64,000 bases of DNA from Acidobacteriota bacterium (GCA_965248695.1 CBDFKD010000002.1:2080001-2144000), one strand, 5' to 3'. Counted from the first letter of the stretch, positions 49,266 through 60,036 are shown. Notes: generated by a model from the sequence alone, not told the origin. Made by a program: numbers and translations.

Positions 49266-49328
49266 CATGTCGAGACGACAGCAGGCCGCACCGGAGCGCG
49301 TCGCGCGTTGGGACGTCTGTCGGCAACC

Positions 49329-49619
49329 ATGAGTCAGCTCGGACAGTTGGCGCTGTTGATCCTGCTGCTCCTGGGCGCTTTCCTGTGGGTCGGCTGGCTG
49401 ATGAAACGACGCGAGCAGCGTTGGGACAGCGACGACTGGCGCCGCGGCGGGACGTCGGCCCGCGTCGGCAATGCACTGCTCGAGGTGCAGTCGCTACTGG
49501 AGCCTGATCGACGTCACGGGCTGCAGGAACGACGTCGCTCGAAGCGCGACGACGAGGACTCGGGCGACCCCCCGATGGCACGCGACGAATCGGACGTCGA
49601 CCGGGGCACCGGCAGCTAG
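49329..49619 (+). CDS. Small membrane protein
   Basis: One TM helix, then VGNALLEVQSLLEP and acidic DDEDSGDPP. Confidence 0.6.
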   Translation: MSQLGQLALLILLLLGAFLWVGWLMKRREQRWDSDDWRRGGTSARVGNALLEVQSLLEPDRRHGLQERRRSKRDDEDSGDPPMARDESDVDRGTGS

Positions 49620-49635
49620 CGGTTCACGGCGCCGA

Positions 49636-50370
49636 TCAAGGCGCCGGTGTGAGGTCCTTGGCGCGGAGGTTGCGGAACCAGACCGAGCTGTCGTGGTCGT
49701 GGTTCTGCAGCCCGACATAGCCGGAGGCAGCAAAATCGGCCACCTTGCCGCGCGGCTCGGCATCCCAGTCGACCACCGTCTCGCCATTGATCTCGACGGT
49801 GATGTGGTCGCCGACGAACGTCACGCGCATTTGGTTCCACTCACCCGTAGGTCGCGACGCCAGACGCGACGCCGCCTCCGCGTCGTAGACCGCGCCAGTC
49901 TGGTGAACTCCCTCCTCGGAGGCATCGTGGATCTGTATCTCGAACGAGTGGTAGATGTAGTCGTCACTGCTCGGAGCGCCGGGAACGCGTACGAACACCC
50001 CTGAGTTCGATTCCAGCTTGCTGGTCTTGAACTCGAGCTCGAGCGCGAAATCGGAGAACTCGCGCGCGCTGTACCACATCAGCCCCATGCCTCCGTGGGA
50101 TTCGAGCACGCCGGTTTCGGGGTCGAGCACGAAGTACCCGGGTCCGTAGTGGTTCCAGCCGCCCTTGTGGAAGGTACCGTCAGGTCGCTGCTGGATCAGG
50201 CCTTCGTATCCTTCATCGCTCACCGGCATCGACCTCTCCAGCGCGGGCGGGCTCGGGCGCTCCTCGCCACCGGCCGCCAGGGAACGCATCGCGCCCACTC
50301 CGAGCGCGGCGGCGGCGCCGATGCTGAACACGATCGCGGGTAACGGCAGTCGTCTTACACCTTGCGTCAT
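49636..50370 (-). CDS. DUF1080 (3-keto-disaccharide hydrolase family) exported protein
   Basis: FSDFALELEFK, NSGVFVR, EIQIHD, TGAVYD, GEWN, GYVGLQNH, VWFRNL. Confidence 0.92.
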   Translation of the reverse strand: MTQGVRRLPLPAIVFSIGAAAALGVGAMRSLAAGGEERPSPPALERSMPVSDEGYEGLIQQRPDGTFHKGGWNHYGPGYFVLDPETGVLESHGGMGLMWYSAREFSDFALELEFKTSKLESNSGVFVRVPGAPSSDDYIYHSFEIQIHDASEEGVHQTGAVYDAEAASRLASRPTGEWNQMRVTFVGDHITVEINGETVVDWDAEPRGKVADFAASGYVGLQNHDHDSSVWFRNLRAKDLTPAP

Positions 50371-50425
50371 CAGGGGATCTCCGGCAGCTGCGCGTTCTGG
50401 GTGTCAAGTCGCCTGTTACGGGCCC

Positions 50426-51676
50426 CTAGTTGCTCTTGGGGTTCCACTCGCCGCGGGCAACGGCGGGAATGAACGTTGCGAGGTCGGGGGGCGGGAACTC
50501 GATCGCCGTACCGGTCTCGGCGCTCATGTACCCGGTCATCAGCAGTTCGGTAACGTTGAGGCCGTCGTCGAACGTCTCGCTCGGTCGGCGGCCCTCGAGA
50601 AAGCAGCGCGTCATGTGTCGGTTCTCGCCGACGTAGCCGTATTCGCTTTCTTCATCCGCCACCACCGGCATCTGGCCCACCTCTGCGTTCTGCTTCTCGA
50701 CCAGATCCTCGCCCTCGGCACCGACCACGTGGCGAGAGAAGAAGAGCTTCGGGCCCATGTCGAGTGAGTTCAGCGACATCGAGTACTCGGGGCCGAGCAG
50801 CTCCATGGTCAGCCGCAGACCGGCGCCTACGAAGCACCACGAGGTCGTCGTCTCGACGATGCGTGGATTGTCGTCCGGGTCGCGGTATTCGACCAGCGAA
50901 CGCGCGAAATCCTCCGACGGCCGCTGCGTGTAGTCGTTGCCACCATCGCTGGCGCGGGCGAGCTGCTCGGCATAGCGAGGTTGCTGCCACTTGAGACAGT
51001 TCGTATATGCAGTGACCCGCACCGGCGTCAACGCCTCGCGCGGCGCTTCCGGCGGTGTCAGCAGGAACCGCGCCGTCTCCACCGAGTGGCACATCATGTC
51101 GTTCATCACGCCGCCGCCTTGAAGCTCCCCGGACCAGAACCAGGGCATGTGCGGGCCGGAGTGCTCTTCGGCAGCGCGCGCCAGATACGGCGGCCCGGTC
51201 AGCGCCGCACCTCGCGCCCAGGCGATCTGCTTGCCGCGCACCACGCTCGGGGTGAACAGTTGGTTCTCGAGATAGCCGTCGAGCAGCTCGGCGTCGTGCG
51301 CCAGCTCGACCATGCGCTTCGCCTCGGCGACGTTTCGTCCAAGCGGCTTCTCGCAGGCGACGCCGACGAGCTCACCATGGCCCGATTTCAGCGCGTTGAC
51401 GATCTCTTCCATGACCTCGATACGAGTGAAATTCGGCGAACAGATCCATACCGCGTCGATGGCAGGATCGGCGACCATCTCGGTGATCGAGCCGAAGGCC
51501 TTCGCCTCGCCGACGCGCAGCTCGCGCGCCAGCGCCGCCGCCGCCGTGGCGCTCTCGCGGCTTCGACTGACGACCCCGAGGACATCGGCGTCGCGGACGC
51601 CGACAAAGGATCGAATGTGAAAGCAGCCGACGAAGCCGCCGCCGATGATGCCGATACCGAGTCTTCGCTGCGTCAT
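50426..51676 (-). CDS. Gfo/Idh/MocA-family oxidoreductase (cytoplasmic)
   Basis: GIIGGGFVG, CEKPL, GGGVMNDMMCH. Confidence 0.9.
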   Translation of the reverse strand: MTQRRLGIGIIGGGFVGCFHIRSFVGVRDADVLGVVSRSRESATAAAALARELRVGEAKAFGSITEMVADPAIDAVWICSPNFTRIEVMEEIVNALKSGHGELVGVACEKPLGRNVAEAKRMVELAHDAELLDGYLENQLFTPSVVRGKQIAWARGAALTGPPYLARAAEEHSGPHMPWFWSGELQGGGVMNDMMCHSVETARFLLTPPEAPREALTPVRVTAYTNCLKWQQPRYAEQLARASDGGNDYTQRPSEDFARSLVEYRDPDDNPRIVETTTSWCFVGAGLRLTMELLGPEYSMSLNSLDMGPKLFFSRHVVGAEGEDLVEKQNAEVGQMPVVADEESEYGYVGENRHMTRCFLEGRRPSETFDDGLNVTELLMTGYMSAETGTAIEFPPPDLATFIPAVARGEWNPKSN

Positions 51677-51697
51677 GGGGATCGTTTCATCATGTCG

Positions 51698-52909
51698 TCA
51701 GGCCACGGCCGGTCCGGCGGCGCGTTGATCCTTGAAGAACAGCAAATAGGCCACAGCGCATAGCACTGTGATGGCGCAGGGTACCAGGAACACAGTGGTC
51801 CAATCGGTTACGCCGTCCACGGTGAATCGGCTTTGCACATAGCCGGCAAAGATGCTGCCAACGAAGCTGCCAACGCCGAGTGTGACGATCGCAATCAGGC
51901 TCTGGGCTGAAGCGCGGATGTCCTTCGGCGCCACCGAGTCGACATAGATGAACGCCGCAACAAAGAAGAAGACGAAGCAGAATCCGTGCAGCGTAAGCGA
52001 CGCCACCACGAGCCACCACGGCGAGCCGATGGCGAAGACCACATAGCGTATTGGCCAAGCGATGACTCCGAGGGCCAGTGTCGAACGCATTCCGTATCGT
52101 TTCAGGAACCACGACAGCATCACCGCCAGCACGAAGATCTCGGCGATCTGGGCCACCGTCATCACCGCCGGGACACGCGCCGGCGAAATTCCGATGATCG
52201 ACGACTGGAGATACGGCGCAGTCAGCACATAGTAGAACTGCAACTCGGTGGCAACGACGAACGAGATCAACATGAAGATGGCGAAGTCGCGATCCCGAAG
52301 CATGCGCAGGGCCTCCAGAAACGCCCAGGGCTTGCGGTCGTCTCGTCGCGGCGGCGTGTGTGGCAAGAGAAAAGACTGCAATCCCATTAGCACGGAGAAA
52401 CCGCCGGCTAGCAGGAACATGTCGCCACCCATCGCCTGTCCATTGGCACCGGCGTTGGCGCGCCAGCCGGCCAGCGCCCAGCCGGCCGCGATCCAGCCGA
52501 TCGTTCCCCAGACGCGAATCCTTCCGAAACCTTCCTCGGAGTTGTCCAGGTTGCTCATGGCGATCGAGTTGGTGAGCGCCAACGTCGGCGCGTACAGCAG
52601 GCAGTACAGGAACATGACGAGCGCCAGCGAGCGGTAGTCCGTTAACGTCGAGGCATAGAGCAACACGCCCCCACCGGCCAGCTGAAGCGCCGCGACGGTG
52701 TGCTCGGAGGCGAAGTACCGGTCCGCGATCTGGCCACCGATGAACGGCGCGATGATGGTGGCGAGCGGCAGTAGCGAGTAGATGAACCCGACCTGCGTCC
52801 CTTCGAAGCTCAGGTCGCCAAGGAGATACGCCGACAGCACCGGGGCCCAGGCGCCCCAGATGGCGTACTGCAGGAACATCATCAGGCCGAGCTGGAACCT
52901 GCCGCTCAT
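51698..52909 (-). CDS. MFS transporter, nucleoside:H+ symporter (NupG-like)
   Basis: MMFLQYAIWGAW, GQIADRYF, PTLALTNS, IRVWGTIGW, LHGFCF. Confidence 0.9.
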   Translation of the reverse strand: MSGRFQLGLMMFLQYAIWGAWAPVLSAYLLGDLSFEGTQVGFIYSLLPLATIIAPFIGGQIADRYFASEHTVAALQLAGGGVLLYASTLTDYRSLALVMFLYCLLYAPTLALTNSIAMSNLDNSEEGFGRIRVWGTIGWIAAGWALAGWRANAGANGQAMGGDMFLLAGGFSVLMGLQSFLLPHTPPRRDDRKPWAFLEALRMLRDRDFAIFMLISFVVATELQFYYVLTAPYLQSSIIGISPARVPAVMTVAQIAEIFVLAVMLSWFLKRYGMRSTLALGVIAWPIRYVVFAIGSPWWLVVASLTLHGFCFVFFFVAAFIYVDSVAPKDIRASAQSLIAIVTLGVGSFVGSIFAGYVQSRFTVDGVTDWTTVFLVPCAITVLCAVAYLLFFKDQRAAGPAVA

Positions 52910-53130
52910 GTGCTCTCGACTAGCCCCGAGGCGTAGACAGTTCCGTCCGTTGACAACGCGCTCAGACACGCACACGCGCAGCGATCAGGCGCGACACACG
53001 GGCAAGCCAGGCGAACGCCGGAGCATAGCAGCCGGCACGGAACTGCTCAAAGCCGCTGGCCTCTGGCGTAGCCGCCTGGCCGTGATTAGGATCCGTCACT
53101 CCCGCTCAGAAAGCTCTAGGAGGACGGCTG

Positions 53131-54198
53131 ATGGTTCGGTCCTGCGGCTACCTTGGCTACGTCGTTTCAGTCCTCGTCGCTGTCAGCACACTGAACGGCG
53201 CGGCGCCGCGACAAGCTGCGGCGCAGGAGGAGAGTCGCGGCGATCTCGTTTTCGCGTCGTCAACGATCACCTATCTGATTGGTGGCGGCGGTGACACACG
53301 GCTGGACGCGCCGGAGGTCGGTGTCAACGGCGTCTATGACGCGGCGATGAAGTACGAACTCAAGCGCGCCACGCTGGTCGGAAGGATGCTGATAACTGAC
53401 TTGGCCTTCGGAACCAACTCCCCAGGCTCGATTGATGCCGAATGGCGTCGGTCGGTAAAGGGCAAGCCGGCCAGGAAACTGGCGCGAGCCAGCGAGCCGC
53501 TCGGTGGCAACGATCGCTTTGTACGGTTCTTCGTCGACAAGCCCGCCCGGAAGCTGAAGAACGCCGTGTTGTCGGCGAATTACAAGGCCCGCAACGGACG
53601 CTATGTTGCGCCGTCCATGGTGCAGGTTGCTTCTGCGGTAGATCTCCGCGCATCGCTGGGACGCATAGGCAACGGGCCGAACGACGCCGGTGTCAAACTT
53701 GGAGACTACGACCAAGAGGGACTGCGGCTGTTGTCGAAGTCGGCCAACACGCAGGCGGTGTCGGCGTCGGCCAGCTACGAGCTTCAACCGGATGATTCCG
53801 GCGAGATCTTCTTCGCCCCTCCGGGCCCGATAGAGGCCGGCTACGAGCTGCTAGATGCGGCGGCGGAATTGGTGGGGACAACCCAGAAAGTCTGTATCAG
53901 GTTCCGTTTGTCCAACTCCACGCCGGGTAAGCCCTTCTTGGTGTCCGAGGCCTTGTTTTCAACCGTCCCTTCCGGGGGCGCAGGGACTCGCGTGCCCTTC
54001 GTGAAGTTCAAGAACAAGAAAGTCGGGGAGGACCTCGAGAAAACAATCAAACTCGACCCGCAGAACTTTCTGAACACCGTGCGAGACGGCGAGTTCGACC
54101 TCCTCATCAAAGCCGCCAACGACCCGGGCACACAGCTCTTCGTCGAAATGGAAATCACCGTTCCGGGAAACACCGCCGAAGGTAGGTTTGCGCGCTGA
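53131..54198 (+). CDS. Hypothetical exported protein
   Basis: AGGAGG RBS, signal-like N-terminus, Lys-rich, less GC-biased codons than its neighbours; no recognised family. Confidence 0.65.
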   Translation: MVRSCGYLGYVVSVLVAVSTLNGAAPRQAAAQEESRGDLVFASSTITYLIGGGGDTRLDAPEVGVNGVYDAAMKYELKRATLVGRMLITDLAFGTNSPGSIDAEWRRSVKGKPARKLARASEPLGGNDRFVRFFVDKPARKLKNAVLSANYKARNGRYVAPSMVQVASAVDLRASLGRIGNGPNDAGVKLGDYDQEGLRLLSKSANTQAVSASASYELQPDDSGEIFFAPPGPIEAGYELLDAAAELVGTTQKVCIRFRLSNSTPGKPFLVSEALFSTVPSGGAGTRVPFVKFKNKKVGEDLEKTIKLDPQNFLNTVRDGEFDLLIKAANDPGTQLFVEMEITVPGNTAEGRFAR

Positions 54199-54276
54199 CG
54201 GAACTACGGGCTGGTCGGGCCTTGCGCCTACCCTGGTGCTTTCTGCGACCCCGAGCTCAGCGAAGCCTGGCGGCGG

Positions 54277-55893
54277 CTAAACGATCCTCTGCTGCACCGG
54301 GTCCCACTCGACCTTGCGACCGAGTTGGTACGACTTCGTCGCCATATGGCAGGTGATCGCTTCCTCCAGGCCACGATCGATGCTGCAGCTCGGCTCGCCA
54401 CCATGACGAACGGTGTCGAGCCAGTCCTTGATATGTAGCCAGTGCGTGCTCACCCGCCGGCCGCCTTGATAGGTGAATAGAAGCCCGCGGCTGGCGAAGT
54501 ACTCCTCGGTGGCCGTGGTGACGGCATCCAGCCCCTTGAAGCCGGGGCGATACGTCAGCAGCGGGCGATCGACATCGACCACCTGGCGCTCGATCAGATC
54601 CGCGTAGCGCGTTGACTGCGGCTCGGCGATCACGCGCACGCCGCTGCCCACTTCCATCGCCGCATCGTGCCCCATGAACACTTTGCCACGTCCGCGACCG
54701 CTGGCCAGCGTGGCGCTGTACACCAGGGTCAGATCGCGATCCGGATACTCGTACACGACCTGAAATACGTCGGGCACGTCGCGGCCGTCCTTGAAGAAGT
54801 AGATGCCTCCGGAGGCCACCGCCGACTTGGGAATGCCAAGGTTCATGATCTGGTTGAGGGCATCGTACTCGTGCGACAGCAGGTCGCCCGCCAGCCCGGT
54901 GCCGTAGTCGTACCAGCAACGCCAGCGAAAGAACCGCTCGAGGTTGAACGGCACTTGGTTGGCGGCGTTGCCCTGGAACTGTTCCCAGTCGATGGTGTGC
55001 GGGTTCCCTTCCGGGTGAATGTCCCACACCCAGGCCCCCCACGGATCGTTGCGGTTAGTGGTCGTCTCCACCAGGGTGATCTTGCCGAGGATCTCCTTCT
55101 CGATGATCTCGCGAGCTTTCTCGTGGCTCTCGAGCTGACGGTTCTGATGCCCGAGCTGGAACTTGATGCCCGACGACTTGACCGCCTCGACCATCGGCAG
55201 CACCTCTTCCTCGGCGCGGGTCATCGCCTTCTCGCAGTACACGTGCTTGCCGGCCGCGGCGGCGGCGATGGTCATGGGCGCGTGCCAGTGATCCGGCGTG
55301 GCGATCAGCACCGCGTCGACATCGGCCGAGTTGAGTAGCTCCTCGTAGTGTCGGAACCGGTACGCCGGTCGCGATCCCGGGGCGTTGGCCGGACGCGTTT
55401 CGTTGGCCGACGTTGCGATGGCGCGCTCGGCGCGAACGTCGAACACGTCACAGACACCGGTGAAAGCGACGTTGAGGTCGCCCTGCTGCATGAACTCGTC
55501 GAGCCGCGTGTTGCGCGGATCCTGGTCGGCGGCGAGGCGCCATTCTTCGGTGACCTCAGGGTGTGCGAAGCCAGCGCCGCGCATGAGCGCCTCACCCTCG
55601 CCACCGAAGCCGATGATCCCGAGGTTGATGCGCTCGGCGGGTGGTCGGCTCTGTGCGTGATCGATGATCGCCGGAGCATCGCCGGTTACACCGAGCTCGG
55701 CCAGTACCTGGTCGCGGCGCTCATCGGCCAACGCCTTCTTGCGCCATGCGCCCCAGCCGAGGGTGCCCAGTACGGGCAGCGACGCCAGCCCTTTGAAAAG
55801 GTCGCGCCGATCGATCGACTTGCCTTCGTTTCCGGTCTTGCCGAGTGTACCGCCCGTTTGCTGCGGCGCCCGGTCGTCGTCATCCGTGCTCAT
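54277..55893 (-). CDS. Gfo/Idh/MocA-family oxidoreductase with Tat-like signal and putative flavinylation motif
   Basis: DRRDLFKG plus hydrophobic segment, GIIGFG, IATPDHWH, YCEK, WRCWYDYGTGLAGDLLSH, DAVTTAT. Confidence 0.9.
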   Translation of the reverse strand: MSTDDDDRAPQQTGGTLGKTGNEGKSIDRRDLFKGLASLPVLGTLGWGAWRKKALADERRDQVLAELGVTGDAPAIIDHAQSRPPAERINLGIIGFGGEGEALMRGAGFAHPEVTEEWRLAADQDPRNTRLDEFMQQGDLNVAFTGVCDVFDVRAERAIATSANETRPANAPGSRPAYRFRHYEELLNSADVDAVLIATPDHWHAPMTIAAAAAGKHVYCEKAMTRAEEEVLPMVEAVKSSGIKFQLGHQNRQLESHEKAREIIEKEILGKITLVETTTNRNDPWGAWVWDIHPEGNPHTIDWEQFQGNAANQVPFNLERFFRWRCWYDYGTGLAGDLLSHEYDALNQIMNLGIPKSAVASGGIYFFKDGRDVPDVFQVVYEYPDRDLTLVYSATLASGRGRGKVFMGHDAAMEVGSGVRVIAEPQSTRYADLIERQVVDVDRPLLTYRPGFKGLDAVTTATEEYFASRGLLFTYQGGRRVSTHWLHIKDWLDTVRHGGEPSCSIDRGLEEAITCHMATKSYQLGRKVEWDPVQQRIV

Positions 55894-56381
55894 CCCGACT
55901 TCCCCTCGCGCCGCAGCAGTCTGCCGAGGCCCACAACGTCATCGGTAGGAAAGGCCCTGATGACCATCAGGGCCGCGATCTCGATCAGGGTCTTGTTGAC
56001 GATCACATACGACCCCTCGGCCGGGATCGCCGTCTCCAGCCCCGGCAGGGGCGGGTTGGCCAGATAGTAGAGCCCCAGCAGGATCATCCCCAGCAACGCT
56101 GCCAGTCGTGATCGCAGGCCCGCCACCAGCGCCAGGCCGATGAGCGTCAGGCCCCACTTGTTCAGCAGGTCGACCAACTGCAGGCGCCCAGGGTCGGACA
56201 CGAGCCACAGGAACCAGCTGGCAAACGGCCCCTGCGCTTCGGACAGAAAACCGGCTGAAGTCCAGTAAGAGTTGGTCAGCTTGGCGATGCCCTCGTAGAG
56301 CAGGTGCCAGCCAACCAGCATTCGCAAGGCTACCAGGGCCAGACTCTGCCCACTCCGGAACTGCGTAGCTGCAGCGGTCAT
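55890..56381 (-). CDS. DoxX-family membrane protein (TQO/DoxD-like)
   Basis: LRMLVGWHLLYEGIAKL, WTSAGFL, NKWGLTLIGLAL..G, EGSYVIVNKTLIE; ATGA overlaps at both ends. Confidence 0.88.
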   Translation of the reverse strand: MTAAATQFRSGQSLALVALRMLVGWHLLYEGIAKLTNSYWTSAGFLSEAQGPFASWFLWLVSDPGRLQLVDLLNKWGLTLIGLALVAGLRSRLAALLGMILLGLYYLANPPLPGLETAIPAEGSYVIVNKTLIEIAALMVIRAFPTDDVVGLGRLLRREGKSG

Positions 56382-57436
56382 TGTTCTCCAGCGTGGGTAG
56401 CGATCCCAGGCTGACTCGACCACCTGGGCGATTTGAAGATGGAGCCGTCAGCGGCGACCGTCAGGCAAGCGGCGCCGGGTATCGACGCCACCAGGCGTGT
56501 TCGGTGTTCCGGCCCGGCCACGAACGCGGCCGTGGCCAACGCGTCGGCGGTCATCGCGGTGGCCGCCCGTACGGTCACGCCGCTGCAGTGCCCCGGCGAT
56601 CCACCGGTGGAGTCGACGATGTGGTGCAGCGTGCGATCGCGATCGAAGTAGATCTCGTAGCTTCCCGATGTGGCAACTGCGCCGTCGTGCAGCTGCAGGA
56701 TGTCGGGATACTTGCCGGCCTTGTCTGGATCCTGAACCGCGACGGTCCAGGGCGCCCGCCCGTCGCGACCTCCAGCGGTCCGGATGTCGCCACCGGCGTT
56801 GATCAGGTAGCTATCGGCGCCACGCGCTTCGAGCGCGTGGGCCATGCGGTCGACGATGAAGCCCTTCGCCATTCCGTCGAGCGTCACGGCGGTGCGCTCT
56901 CCTTGAAATCGGATATGGCGTCCGTCGATGTCCACGCCGGCGGCTTCGACACGAGCCCGGGCATCGACCAGCTCACTGGCGTTCGGAAGCCCGCTGGCTC
57001 CGGACTCGCGTTGCTGGCGCAGCAGATCCACCACCGGCGCCACCGCGATGTCGAACGCTCCGGCGGTCAGCAGCTCGAACCCGCGCGCTCGTCGGAGCAG
57101 GTACACCAATTCGTCGGGGGCGCGTCGCAACGTCCCGATGTCGTTGAGCACCCCCATCGCCGTCGCCGGCTCGTGCCGATTGAGGATGTCTATGAGGCGA
57201 TCCATCTCGGCCAGGGCGCCGCCAATCGCATCCTCGGCCAGCCCGCGCGACGCGTGCAGGGCGGACAACGAGACCACCGTCCCCATCGCCGGCACCGACT
57301 GAGACACCCGCCAGCCGGCGTCGACTGCCTCGGCCTCGGTGGTGAGCGGTCCCTCAATGCACTCGAAGCCCATCTCGAGCAAGCCAGCAAGCTTGCGAGC
57401 ACGGCGTTGCGAGTCGGTTTCGACGACGTCTGGCAC
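56378..57436 (-). CDS. apbE: FAD:protein FMN transferase (no export signal)
   Basis: AMGT, GAFDI, TLDGMAKGFIVD, INAGGDI, VATSGSYE, HHIVD, ADALATA. Confidence 0.93.
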   Translation of the reverse strand: MPDVVETDSQRRARKLAGLLEMGFECIEGPLTTEAEAVDAGWRVSQSVPAMGTVVSLSALHASRGLAEDAIGGALAEMDRLIDILNRHEPATAMGVLNDIGTLRRAPDELVYLLRRARGFELLTAGAFDIAVAPVVDLLRQQRESGASGLPNASELVDARARVEAAGVDIDGRHIRFQGERTAVTLDGMAKGFIVDRMAHALEARGADSYLINAGGDIRTAGGRDGRAPWTVAVQDPDKAGKYPDILQLHDGAVATSGSYEIYFDRDRTLHHIVDSTGGSPGHCSGVTVRAATAMTADALATAAFVAGPEHRTRLVASIPGAACLTVAADGSIFKSPRWSSQPGIATHAGEQ

Positions 57437-57588
57437 GATCGTAAGCAGGCCCGGTAGAGAGTTCGGGCGGGAGAATAGCAGCTGCGTATCACCGCCACAA
57501 AAGGAAACCGGACGCCCGTGACCCTCGTCCTACCTGGAAACAAGGCTTCTGTCCGGGTTCGCGCTGGCTGTAGAGCGAGAGGTGTGTC

Positions 57589-60036
57589 GTGGGTGATTTC
57601 GCACGAGATCTGAGGTTCGGTGTCCGCCAGCTGGTCAACAGCCCAGGGTTCACATTGGCCGCGGTGCTGTGCCTGGCGCTCGGGATCGGGGCGAACTCGG
57701 CAGCGTTCAGCTTCGTGCGCGGGTTTCTGTACCAGACGGCCCCAATTCGCGACCCCGAGAGCCTCGTGCGCATGTACCTCAACTACAACAACGGCCTCGG
57801 GTTCGGTTCCTGGTCGTACCCCGACATGGTCGACATGCGGGCCGCCACCACCGACGTGTTCGACGCGGTCCTGGCCGACACCATCGGCACGTTCAGCTTC
57901 AGCGCCGGTGGCCAGAGCCGCCGCATCTTCGGCACCTACGTCACCGCAAACCACTTCGAGGCCCTCGGCGTAGAACCGCAACTCGGGCGCGGCTTCCTGC
58001 CCGAGGAAGATCAAACCGAGGGTACCCATCCGGTGGCCGTCCTCAATCATCGGTTCTGGAGCGACGCCTTCGGCGCCGATCCGGAAGTCCTCGGGCACAC
58101 CATGCTGCTGAATGGCCGGGAGATAACCGTAGTCGGGGTAGCTCCAGCCAACTACGATGGCAACAACACCGCCATGCGTACGGAGCTTTGGATCCCGTTC
58201 AGCATGGAGCCGGCTCTGACTCCTTCGGGCTCCAACCTCGACCGTCGCGGCAACCACTGGATCCAATCGGCCACCGGCCGTCTGAGACCCGGTGTCACGT
58301 CGCAGCAAGCCAAGGCGGCGCTTGACGCCCTGTACGTGCGCCTGGAAGAACTGTATCCAGACACCAACACCGGTATCACGATCGATTTCTATCCGGAGAG
58401 CAAGGCATCGTTGCACCCCGCGGTCCGGGGTGGCTTCGTCGCCATGCTCTCGTTGCTGTCCGGCATCGTGGGCCTGGTGTTGCTGTTGGCGTGCGCCAAC
58501 GTCGCCGGCCTCCTGATCGCCAGGTCGACAGCGCGGACGCGAGAAGTGGGCATCCGCCTAGCCCTGGGAGCGGGACGCGGCCGCCTGATCCGCCAGCTGC
58601 TGACCGAGAGCGCCGTACTGTCGGTGCTGGGCGGTGGGCTCGGGGTACTCCTTGGCGTGGCGCTGATCGGCCTGGTGAAGTCGTTTCAGCCGCCGACGGA
58701 GCTGCCGCTTCGAATCGACGTCGGGATGGACGGCGCCGTGCTGGCGTTTACCTTCCTGGTCACCGCGGCTACCGGGCTGGTCTTCGGAATGGCACCGGCG
58801 ATCACCGCCACGCGCCAGGATCTGGTGGCGGCGCTCAAGGATGGCGCCCCCGGTTCGGGAGGGCACTCGACCCGTCTACGCGACGCGCTCGTCGTCGGCC
58901 AGGTGTCGTTGTGCCTGGTGTTGCTCGTTGCCGCCGGGATGGTTCTGCGCAGCCTGCAGCAGGTGCAGCGCCTGGATCTCGGCTTCAACCCGGACGGCCT
59001 GATCCACGCGAGCATCGATCCGGCGCTACAGGGATACCCGCTTGAGGAGCTCGACGCTTTCTTTGATGAGCTGCGAACGAACCTACTAGCCCAGCCCGGC
59101 ATCCAGTCGGTGGGTTACTCGGGAACGACGCCACTGTCGCTGATGAACAACCAAACGGGCGTGCTGCCCGAGGGATACGAGGTACCGGAAGGGCAGGATT
59201 GGCCTAGCCTCGACTACACCGAGGTGGATCACGGCTACTTCGCCGCCATGGGGATACCGATCCTGCGCGGCCGCTCATTCGCCGCCGCCGACGACCGCGA
59301 CGCAGCGCCCGTTGCGATCGTCAACCAGGCCTTCGCGGATCGTTTCTGGCCCGACGACAACCCGATCGGCAAGACAATCCGAAGCGGCGGAGAGGAGCGC
59401 GACGTTGTCGGCGTCGTGCCTACGGGCAAGTACTTCAGCCTCGGCGAGGATCCCAAGCCCTTCCACTACGGCGCCCGAGCCCAGCGGTACCGTGGCCAGC
59501 AGACCTTTGTCCACGTACGCACCGCCGGTGAACCCGCTGCGGCGCTCGAAACGGTGCGGCGGGCCATCCAGCAACGCGATCCGACCATGCCGGTTTCCGA
59601 CCTGAACACCGGGCACGGCGCCCTGGGTCTGGCCTTCTTGCCAGCCCATCTCGCCGCCGTCGTGGTGTCGGCGTTCGCCATTCTCGCTTTGTTGCTGGCA
59701 TCCGTCGGGCTATACGGCGTGATCTCGTTCAGCGTCGCACAGGGGATCCACGAGATCGGCGTCCGCATGGCGGTCGGCGCCCGGTCCGGCGACGTGGTTC
59801 GAACCGTAATGGTCCGCGGCGCACGATTGACGCTGATCGGGTTGGGGATTGGCTTGGGTGGCGGCCTGATGTTGTCGCGCGCTGCTGCCAACGTGCTGTA
59901 CGGGGTGAGCGCCACCGATCCGGCCGCCTACGCCGTAGGGGTGCTGGTTCTGAGCGCGGCGGCGGTCGCGGCGAGCTTCGTCCCGGCTCTGCGAGCGACG
60001 CGGATCGACCCGCTGGTGGCATTGCGCACCGACTAG
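57589..60036 (+). CDS. ADOP-type duplicated ABC permease
   Basis: DLRFGVRQL..PGF, LLLACANVAGLL, RLIRQLLTES, EIGVRMAVGA, RATRIDPLVALRTD. Confidence 0.93.
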   Translation: MGDFARDLRFGVRQLVNSPGFTLAAVLCLALGIGANSAAFSFVRGFLYQTAPIRDPESLVRMYLNYNNGLGFGSWSYPDMVDMRAATTDVFDAVLADTIGTFSFSAGGQSRRIFGTYVTANHFEALGVEPQLGRGFLPEEDQTEGTHPVAVLNHRFWSDAFGADPEVLGHTMLLNGREITVVGVAPANYDGNNTAMRTELWIPFSMEPALTPSGSNLDRRGNHWIQSATGRLRPGVTSQQAKAALDALYVRLEELYPDTNTGITIDFYPESKASLHPAVRGGFVAMLSLLSGIVGLVLLLACANVAGLLIARSTARTREVGIRLALGAGRGRLIRQLLTESAVLSVLGGGLGVLLGVALIGLVKSFQPPTELPLRIDVGMDGAVLAFTFLVTAATGLVFGMAPAITATRQDLVAALKDGAPGSGGHSTRLRDALVVGQVSLCLVLLVAAGMVLRSLQQVQRLDLGFNPDGLIHASIDPALQGYPLEELDAFFDELRTNLLAQPGIQSVGYSGTTPLSLMNNQTGVLPEGYEVPEGQDWPSLDYTEVDHGYFAAMGIPILRGRSFAAADDRDAAPVAIVNQAFADRFWPDDNPIGKTIRSGGEERDVVGVVPTGKYFSLGEDPKPFHYGARAQRYRGQQTFVHVRTAGEPAAALETVRRAIQQRDPTMPVSDLNTGHGALGLAFLPAHLAAVVVSAFAILALLLASVGLYGVISFSVAQGIHEIGVRMAVGARSGDVVRTVMVRGARLTLIGLGIGLGGGLMLSRAAANVLYGVSATDPAAYAVGVLVLSAAAVAASFVPALRATRIDPLVALRTD

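Follow-up and report, generated by a model that had tools for sequence, protein, structure and literature searches.

An apbE-doxX-Gfo/Idh/MocA operon of an Acidobacteriota bacterium: a candidate FMN-modified glycoside dehydrogenase with a proposed link to the quinone pool

Introduction

Two described systems come closest to the locus considered here. In the first, ApbE, a flavin adenine dinucleotide (FAD):protein flavin mononucleotide (FMN) transferase, acts on client proteins through a short motif, D-x-x-[S/T]-G-A-[S/T] (ApbE review, available text). The clients named in the accessible parts of this literature are the FMN_bind domains of NqrC, RnfG, NosR and PplA, NqrB/RnfD, DUF2271, DUF3570, FMN_red and Flavodoxin_4, the last two being the client classes named in a 2024 follow-up. 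In the second, Gfo/Idh/MocA dehydrogenases such as AL3 and BT2158 carry twin-arginine translocation (Tat) signals and take part in 3-keto-glycoside metabolism. How such exported enzymes re-oxidize their trapped NAD(P)H (reduced nicotinamide adenine dinucleotide, with or without phosphate) is a standing question in the 3-keto-glycoside papers, as far as their available text goes: the in-vivo oxidant of BT2158/AL3 is left open, the candidates put forward being a different sugar, the 3-keto-sugar or "specialized proteins, such as cytochromes", and recycling of NAD through keto-sugar reduction has been proposed for AL/BT3 (10.1101/2024.03.25.586180, in the part available). Here we describe an apbE-doxX-gfo operon at positions 54277-57436 of a 64,000-nucleotide (nt) stretch of an Acidobacteriota bacterium (GCA_965248695.1, CBDFKD010000002.1:2080001-2144000; the window, below). 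An earlier note on this DNA had proposed that the Gfo/Idh/MocA protein is exported, is itself the ApbE client, and passes electrons from bound NADH through covalent FMN and DoxX to quinone. The conservation of the candidate flavinylation site and its linkage to doxX lead us to favour, guardedly, a module of this kind, with the flavin probably attached before export.

The 2021 flavinylation survey dropped ApbEs without a signal peptide, according to its available text. The terms 'DoxX' and 'Gfo' are absent from the main text, as available, of that survey and of the 2025 ApbE review (supplements may list such clusters). In the literature searched we found no paper that pairs DoxX with ApbE or flavinylation/ApbE with Gfo, and none on the apbE-doxX-gfo module.

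Results

The operon and its candidate flavinylation site

The three genes lie on the minus strand and are coupled by ATGA overlaps. The apbE gene (56378..57436, 352 residues, GTG start) would encode a FAD:protein FMN transferase of a signal-less type and shares 56378-56381 with doxX (55890..56381, 163 residues counted from its ATG), which would encode a small DoxX-like membrane protein and in turn shares 55890-55893 with gfo (54277..55893, 538 residues), the gene of a putative glycoside 3-dehydrogenase probably anchored by a Tat signal. This arrangement is as the earlier note had described it, and so are the two features of the Gfo protein that it had singled out, the twin-arginine N-terminus DRRDLFKG and the sequence DAVTTAT encoded at 54508-54528 (minus strand). 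DAVTTAT, residues 456-462, is a candidate ApbE flavinylation site, with Thr462 as the residue that would carry FMN: D456, T459, T462 and the Ala at position 6 match the client motif, and position 5 is Thr, not Gly. Matches to D..[ST][ST]A[ST] number 20 in the 2,289,136 residues of this genome's six-frame open reading frames (ORFs) of at least 300 residues, a chance expectation of 0.0047 per 538 residues, and among the eight genes between 49636 and 60036 even the wider motif is found in the Gfo protein only.

Homologues were gathered in several ways. A protein search with Gfo scored 8000 candidates, 6025 of them at E <= 1e-10; among the best 120 of these 6025, D..[ST].A[ST] is present in 103, Pro replaces Ala in 16 and NAVTTAT occurs once. 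A second search covered 1.84 billion cluster representatives, with relatives graded down to about 20% identity. The motif is retained down to about 36% identity among the cluster representatives, and two distant family members (P0136 and P0138) have the canonical DAVSGAT; in relatives below about 33% identity, Tat signals are still there and the motif region is different or missing. A metagenome scan seeded with P0136/P0138 returned relatives at 40% identity or less. All gathered sequences were then pooled and aligned to a family profile, and the pattern [DNE]xx[STA][STG][AP][ST] was counted in the unique sequences that cover the site: it is present in all 230 that score at least 450 bits, in 1 of 7 between 350 and 450 bits, and in 3 of 44 below 350 bits, all three of which are short fragments of family members. 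The comparison proposed earlier, of whether the motif is kept beside apbE and doxX and absent from orphan Gfo proteins, comes out positive: these 230 of 230 have it, and it is absent from the 63 other Gfo/Idh/MocA loci of a metagenome control (below) and from the six other Gfo paralogues of the same genome.

Position by position, in the 237 site-covering sequences scoring at least 350 bits, the first residue is D in 228, the fourth is T or S in 233, the fifth is S in 164, T in 67 and G in 2, the sixth is A in 205 and P in 30, and the last is always T (226) or S (11). The caveat raised earlier, that Thr stands where Gly is canonical, holds in the window but is softened, because position 5 varies among S, T and G in the family, because DAVSGAT members exist, and because about 50% of flavinylation is retained after G-to-A (as after A-to-V) in the ApbE motif, according to the accessible part of the ApbE review. 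The motif lies inside an insertion of about 33 residues (~451-483), just ahead of the last conserved helix, and the insertion is missing from the nearest motif-less relatives (P0153, P0157, P0159, P0160). The conserved stretch around the site is longer than the motif and reads PGFKGxDAxTxATEEYFASRGLL.

Linkage to doxX and apbE across genomes

A scan of genome contigs (one genome per species) gave matches in 596 stretches. Relatives are encoded in 587 of these, and the counts below use the best 80 loci. As a natural control we took the loci returned by a metagenome scan with generic Gfo peptides. The earlier note had asked whether the motif co-occurs with neighbouring apbE and doxX. For doxX it does: the gene is directly upstream of gfo in 78 of the 80 genome loci, the other two having at most 53 nt of upstream DNA, and all 15 metagenome loci scoring at least 730 bits on the family profile have both doxX upstream and the motif. 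Among the other Gfo/Idh/MocA loci of the metagenome scan, doxX was found at 0 of 63 and the motif at 0 of 63; two further loci are truncated fragments of the family. For apbE it does so in part only. Adjacency was counted in the 59 loci with at least 2.2 kilobases (kb) upstream of gfo, and apbE is directly upstream on the same strand in 35, mostly Gemmatimonadota and Acidobacteriota, with ApbE elsewhere in the flank in 5 more. The adjacency of apbE to doxX-gfo is lineage-specific. In the genomes without adjacent apbE, an ApbE was found elsewhere in 10 of 10 tested.

The signal-less ApbE

The window's ApbE matches PF02424 with 210.9 bits against a cut-off of 25.6 bits (residues 51-323). It keeps the catalytic His as the second His of LHHIVD (residue 271), which aligns with a position that is H in PDB entry 6nxi and G in 6nxj; the general-base catalytic His of Vibrio cholerae ApbE is His257 (ApbE review, available portion). 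A hydrophobic N-terminus was not found in the first 60 residues, where the top 15-residue Kyte-Doolittle mean is 1.14, and the in-frame DNA upstream of apbE contains nothing signal-like. A signal peptide or lipoprotein anchor is typical of the ApbE family, if not strictly defining. Measured as the maximum 12-residue mean hydropathy ahead of the ApbE domain, the ApbEs that adjoin doxX-gfo, the window's type, fall between 0.02 and 1.62 (n=38) and other ApbEs between 1.76 and 3.31 (n=11). These 11 are the second copy of the same genome, copies on the opposite strand in loci labelled Aminicenantes, and copies from other places in genomes, and in many of them a lipobox-like sequence ends the N-terminal hydrophobic stretch. 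Tat cargo acquires cofactors prior to export, and because the window's ApbE is without a signal peptide, flavinylation would probably precede Tat export and take place in the cytoplasm. The earlier interpretation of a flavin on the dehydrogenase, which the conservation of the motif and the linkage to doxX both favour, is supported in part and corrected in this respect.

The genome (96.4% complete) was also searched for known clients: FMN_bind and DUF2271 were not found, and there was no NqrB/RnfD above cut-off. Without the known clients searched for, this ApbE needs another client, and the genome counts, in the usage of Meheust et al., as an orphan-apbE genome.

A second ApbE of the genome lies outside the window, at L003:7843-8907 (G000:C2, ~219845-221044), and has a lipoprotein-like N-terminus, VLTTVVLQVLTIAC. 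It closes a nuoC-D-EF-G-H-I gene row; a clear motif was found in none of the Nuo proteins beside it, NuoG having only NDNATAS.

The Gfo/Idh/MocA dehydrogenase

The Gfo protein matches PF01408 (50.5 bits), PF22725 (33.7 bits) and PF02894 (25.6 bits), all above cut-off, and its Rossmann motif, GFGGEG, is at residues 95-100. Invariance was judged on 138 aligned sequences, in which G95, G97, E221, K222 and H341 are invariant; E221/K222 (EKP-type motif Lys) and H341 we take to be catalytic residues of the family. The top NCBIfam match is the BT_2158 glycoside 3-dehydrogenase, NF058561, with 111.3 bits against a 750-bit cut-off and over residues 177-387 only; judged by these matches, the protein is of a subfamily related to NF058561 and not a member of it. 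The closest PDB matches, 8tdf and 8tdh, likewise align over residues 169-387 at most (181-387 in one comparison), and a profile search of the PDB left the C-terminal region unaligned.

DRRDLFKG is residues 28-35, and both R29 and R30 are invariant in the 138 sequences. The twin-arginine motif and the hydrophobic segment that follows it (residues 28-50) are encoded at 55744..55812 on the minus strand; the segment is moderately hydrophobic (maximum 17-residue mean 1.08) and has the basic residues RKK after it. TatC is encoded twice in the genome. The signal is likely uncleaved and would then act as a membrane anchor, a choice between cleavage and anchoring that we infer from these features. In a genome of the same genus the dehydrogenase ortholog is in two overlapping pieces (G116:C15:1853102-1854671; query 1-296 and 283-523), which suggests a frameshift or an assembly error.

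DoxX and a second DoxX architecture

The hydropathy profile of the window's DoxX has hydrophobic segments, and W25, E30, G31, K34, W40, N74, G77, L78, G82, L85, G88, P110 and K130 are invariant, many of them toward the half that a hydropathy-based topology predicts to be periplasmic. The subfamily is present in 37 of 301 genomes sampled from the phylum. The link of the DoxX family with quinone derives from thiosulfate:quinone oxidoreductase. DoxX itself was considered as the ApbE client and rejected: the motif is absent, and no Ser or Thr is invariant in 47 sequences.

DoxX and Gfo are fused in four protein clusters (P0049, P0278, P0280, P0301). In P0049 the order is DoxX, basic linker, a pair of arginines (RR), hydrophobic helix and dehydrogenase, and its catalytic domain would be outside the membrane if the C-terminus of DoxX is cytoplasmic, as the positive-inside rule would have it. 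A search of longer proteins with the window's DoxX found 150 at E <= 1e-8; the 120 that were listed comprise the P0277-P0395 family and the Gfo fusions. Apart from the four Gfo fusions, the listed proteins are 510-540 residues long, with one of 288, and have a different architecture: a DoxX portion 45-58% identical to the window's DoxX, RR, a helix, the motif 30-42 residues past RR, and a C-terminal domain of about 290 residues that is unnamed and had no match in Pfam or in the PDB. Among the listed proteins, 102 of 120 match the motif pattern, frequently with NAVSGAT, NAITGAT or NAISGAT; of the 18 that do not, at least 9 keep the core [ST]GAT and differ in the first residue. In the Gfo family and the fusion family alike, position 5 may be S, T or G and position 6 may be A or P. 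As far as sequence can tell, the window's DoxX subfamily is paired with an ApbE-type site in two protein settings that are unrelated to each other. The apbE gene adjoins the fusion-family gene in 2 of 8 loci examined (L181-L188). Such DoxX-RR-helix-SGAT fusions were not found in the window's own genome, and the literature search found no description of them.

DoxX-linked Gfo subfamilies without the motif

ApbE and DoxX also accompany two types of Tat-signal Gfo protein in which no recognizable motif was found. In the first, apbE, doxX and a Gfo of about 435 residues follow one another (L178-L180, L189, L190, L196); ApbE is adjacent in 6 of 6 and starts with an RR motif. In the second, a Gfo of about 485 residues is followed by doxX (L191-L195, L197-L199), and an ApbE, divergent, signal-less and keeping DHIVDPRTG, is in the flank of 7 of 8. 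The catalytic His is intact in the ApbEs beside both types. An AAAT-E stretch in the ~435-residue type, conserved in 5 of 5, was considered as a degenerate site; it aligns elsewhere and is only a guess. In a quick tree the motif-bearing Gfo proteins form one clade and the two motif-less DoxX-linked types another (each with a Shimodaira-Hasegawa-like approximate likelihood ratio test value, SH-aLRT, of 99), and the two clades group together with weak support (85), separate from nine non-DoxX Gfo proteins from metagenomes.

The surrounding gene cluster

The feature extends beyond 54277-57436, as the operon of its relatives runs on into the genes of a major facilitator superfamily (MFS) transporter, a cytoplasmic Gfo and a DUF1080 protein; the order in relatives, on one strand, is apbE, doxX, gfo, MFS, a second, signal-less Gfo, and DUF1080. 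The window has all three further genes on the minus strand: an MFS transporter of the Nuc_H_symport family (51698..52975; PF03825, 348.8 bits), a signal-less Gfo/Idh/MocA protein that is a putative cytoplasmic keto-sugar reductase (50426..51676; PF01408, 65.6 bits, from residue 7), and a DUF1080 3-keto-disaccharide hydrolase whose N-terminus has a hydrophobic signal (49636..50370; PF06439, 126.1 bits). An MFS-type gene follows gfo within 400 nt in 29 of the 65 loci with at least 1.3 kb downstream, and MFS, second Gfo and DUF1080 are all present in 23 of the 42 loci with at least 5 kb downstream. The pairing of an exported Gfo with a DUF1080 hydrolase, known from the BT2156-2160 and AL1-5 clusters, is present here too. 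A lyase of the sugar-isomerase/epimerase type (the AL1/BT2156 kind) was not found between 49636 and 57436, the part of the genome searched for it. Because of this cluster context and the resemblance to BT2158/AL3, analogy points to a role of the module in periplasmic C3 oxidation of glycosides, which would be followed by hydrolysis, import and cytoplasmic reduction.

Two genes on the plus strand flank gfo and apbE. An ORF of 355 residues with a signal-like N-terminus and no Pfam match (53131..54198) splits the otherwise conserved cluster between the gfo and MFS genes, and a tblastn search with it against the 80 related loci gave no match. Divergent from apbE is the gene of an 815-residue MacB/FtsX-type ATP-binding cassette (ABC) permease (57589..60036); its link to the module is probably accidental, because relatives occur near the module in just 5 of the 80 loci. 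A scan of 49300-57800 for promoters and terminators was uninformative, with no promoter-like site and with 8 terminator-like ones where 4.3 were expected.

Discussion

A proposed dehydrogenase:quinone module

On balance we lean towards a periplasmic dehydrogenase:quinone module, with flavin, DoxX and quinone in series, that would start a 3-keto-glycoside pathway. The Gfo/Idh/MocA enzyme would fold and bind NAD in the cytoplasm, where the signal-less ApbE would place FMN on Thr462 of the DAVTTAT insertion. The folded protein would then be exported by Tat and held by its uncleaved signal beside a four-helix DoxX. In the periplasm it would oxidize a glycoside at C3, the tightly bound NADH would give its hydride to the tethered FMN, and the flavin electrons would go by way of DoxX to quinone. 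The DUF1080 hydrolase would split the 3-keto-glycoside, the MFS transporter would take up the keto-sugar, and the cytoplasmic Gfo would reduce it. Flavinylation, the order NADH-FMN-DoxX-quinone, the substrate and the direction of electron flow are what we infer from motif, gene context and analogy.

Several observations weigh against this proposal. First, the site departs from the canonical motif: Gly is replaced by Thr in the window and by S/T in most relatives, Ala is Pro in 30 of 237, and the literature search found no report on flavinylation at sites with such replacements. Second, ApbE is absent from the flank in 19 of the 59 loci, mostly Bacteroidota-type, Neomarinimicrobiota and Latescibacterota. 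In the sample of 301 genomes from the phylum, the 19 with an ortholog all have an ApbE, but this co-occurrence is weak evidence because ApbE is common (187 of 301, three of the 187 flagged as unpublished) and related genomes are not independent. Third, the window's DoxX scores 22.2 bits against PF07681, below the 23.6-bit cut-off (its subfamily relatives score 25.6, P0277; 23.9, P0323; and 18.0, P0289), and its quinone reactivity is a presumption from the family. Fourth, in the ~435- and ~485-residue types a conserved motif-like site was not found in Gfo or in DoxX, and two further metagenome loci (L139:272-2710 and L164:2-2225) have a Tat-signal Gfo gene with that of a signal-less ApbE directly after it, both motif and DoxX being absent; the neighbours there are unrelated, the downstream genes of L164 being those of a rhomboid protein and adenylosuccinate lyase. 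The association of ApbE, DoxX and Tat-signal Gfo is wider than the motif and probably older than it. Either the motif-less subfamilies use a non-canonical site or ApbE serves such modules otherwise, and because ApbE accompanies both of these DoxX-linked subfamilies, apbE linkage alone is no proof that this motif is the target. The width of the association is why our confidence in the module goes no further than a leaning.

Alternative explanations

The strongest alternative accepts DoxX-Gfo as a real membrane-anchored dehydrogenase and takes the DAVTTAT insertion to be structural or substrate-binding, with ApbE helping in some other way (at another site or protein, or with non-covalent FMN). 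The missing Gly and the Pro variants would suit it, as would the conservation of the whole of PGFKGxDAxTxATEEYFASRGLL beyond the seven motif residues, and so would the His-intact ApbEs that accompany the two motif-less subfamilies and the L139/L164 type. It fits poorly with the recurrence of the same motif variants in an unrelated context fused to the same DoxX subfamily, often as SGAT or TGAT, with the T or S that ends the motif in 237 of 237 sequences and the DAVSGAT of distant members, and with the absence of the motif from every other protein of the cluster. We regard this explanation as rather unlikely, if one to be taken seriously.

A second alternative is that the enzyme works as an AL3/BT2158-like protein, whose bound NAD is recycled redox-neutrally through reduction of the released 3-keto-sugar, with DoxX as a tether or unrelated and no electrons reaching quinone. 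Such recycling is what has been proposed for AL/BT3 (see Introduction), and the cluster does include a DUF1080 hydrolase. AL3/BT2158-like relatives are without the insertion, however, and DoxX is at none of the 63 other Gfo loci; the cluster's own MFS transporter and cytoplasmic Gfo fit import followed by cytoplasmic reduction of the keto-sugar; and it would not explain why DoxX is so strictly linked, why DoxX-Gfo fusions exist or why there is a dedicated ApbE. We consider it improbable.

Equally hard to credit is reverse flow, from quinol through DoxX and FMN to bound NAD in a periplasmic reductase of keto-sugars or other carbonyls: sequence does not fix the direction and Gfo/Idh/MocA enzymes work both ways (glucose-fructose oxidoreductase within one cycle, by the accounts available), but electron transfer from quinol to NAD is uphill on standard potentials, and the 3-keto-disaccharide hydrolase next door implies a periplasmic 3-keto product.

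If the favoured module is real, covalent FMN together with DoxX would answer the NAD(P)H question for a family whose 587 loci are spread over several phyla. The known ApbE clients would then include a NAD-dependent dehydrogenase fold, DoxX proteins, which are poorly understood, would gain a defined redox partner, and signal-less ApbEs, filtered from the 2021 survey, would be seen to act on export-bound proteins. More tentatively, and with the balance of our judgement on the other side, the module may represent a widespread, undescribed class of respiratory dehydrogenase, in which an insertion-borne FMN would serve as a swinging arm, DoxX as a minimal four-helix quinone reductase and the cytoplasmic ApbE as a dedicated lineage, with the same logic reused with another exported domain and possibly, via non-canonical sites, in two further Gfo subfamilies.

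Comparison with known systems

The nearest enzymes are AL3 and BT2158, which like the window's Gfo are Gfo/Idh/MocA proteins with Tat signals and have a DUF1080 3-keto-glycoside hydrolase alongside; tightly bound NAD is reported for them in the available text. The window's Gfo differs from them in its motif insertion, which is absent from its nearest motif-less relatives, and in its partners: the AL3/BT2158 papers, in the parts available, mention neither a DoxX partner nor ApbE. Another exported member of the Gfo/Idh/MocA family, the glucose-fructose oxidoreductase of Zymomonas (PDB 1h6a and others), also passes through Tat with its nicotinamide cofactor bound, but it is soluble and runs a redox-neutral two-sugar ping-pong, and it lacks both a flavin site and a membrane partner. 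DoxD/DoxA thiosulfate:quinone oxidoreductase shares the DoxX-type membrane fold; the window's DoxX differs in its sub-cut-off Pfam score, and has no sulfur-enzyme partner and no defined quinone site. The DoxX-RR-helix-SGAT fusions have the same DoxX subfamily, twin arginines plus helix, and the same form of motif, but their catalytic domain is unrelated and unnamed, and the motif comes just past the membrane helix, whereas in the window's Gfo it lies in a C-terminal insertion.

With the known ApbE clients the window's Gfo shares a seven-residue site ending in Thr/Ser, an apbE nearby and an extracytoplasmic function. It differs from them in four ways: the carrier is a NAD-dependent dehydrogenase fold, the family site reads T[ST]A[TS] instead of [ST]GA[ST], the ApbE is signal-less, and DoxX, as the membrane partner, falls outside the transmembrane classes named for known clients in the available literature. 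The module is best filed as a variant of ApbE-dependent extracytosolic electron transfer, with a candidate new client fold, a new membrane partner and, probably, modification before export.

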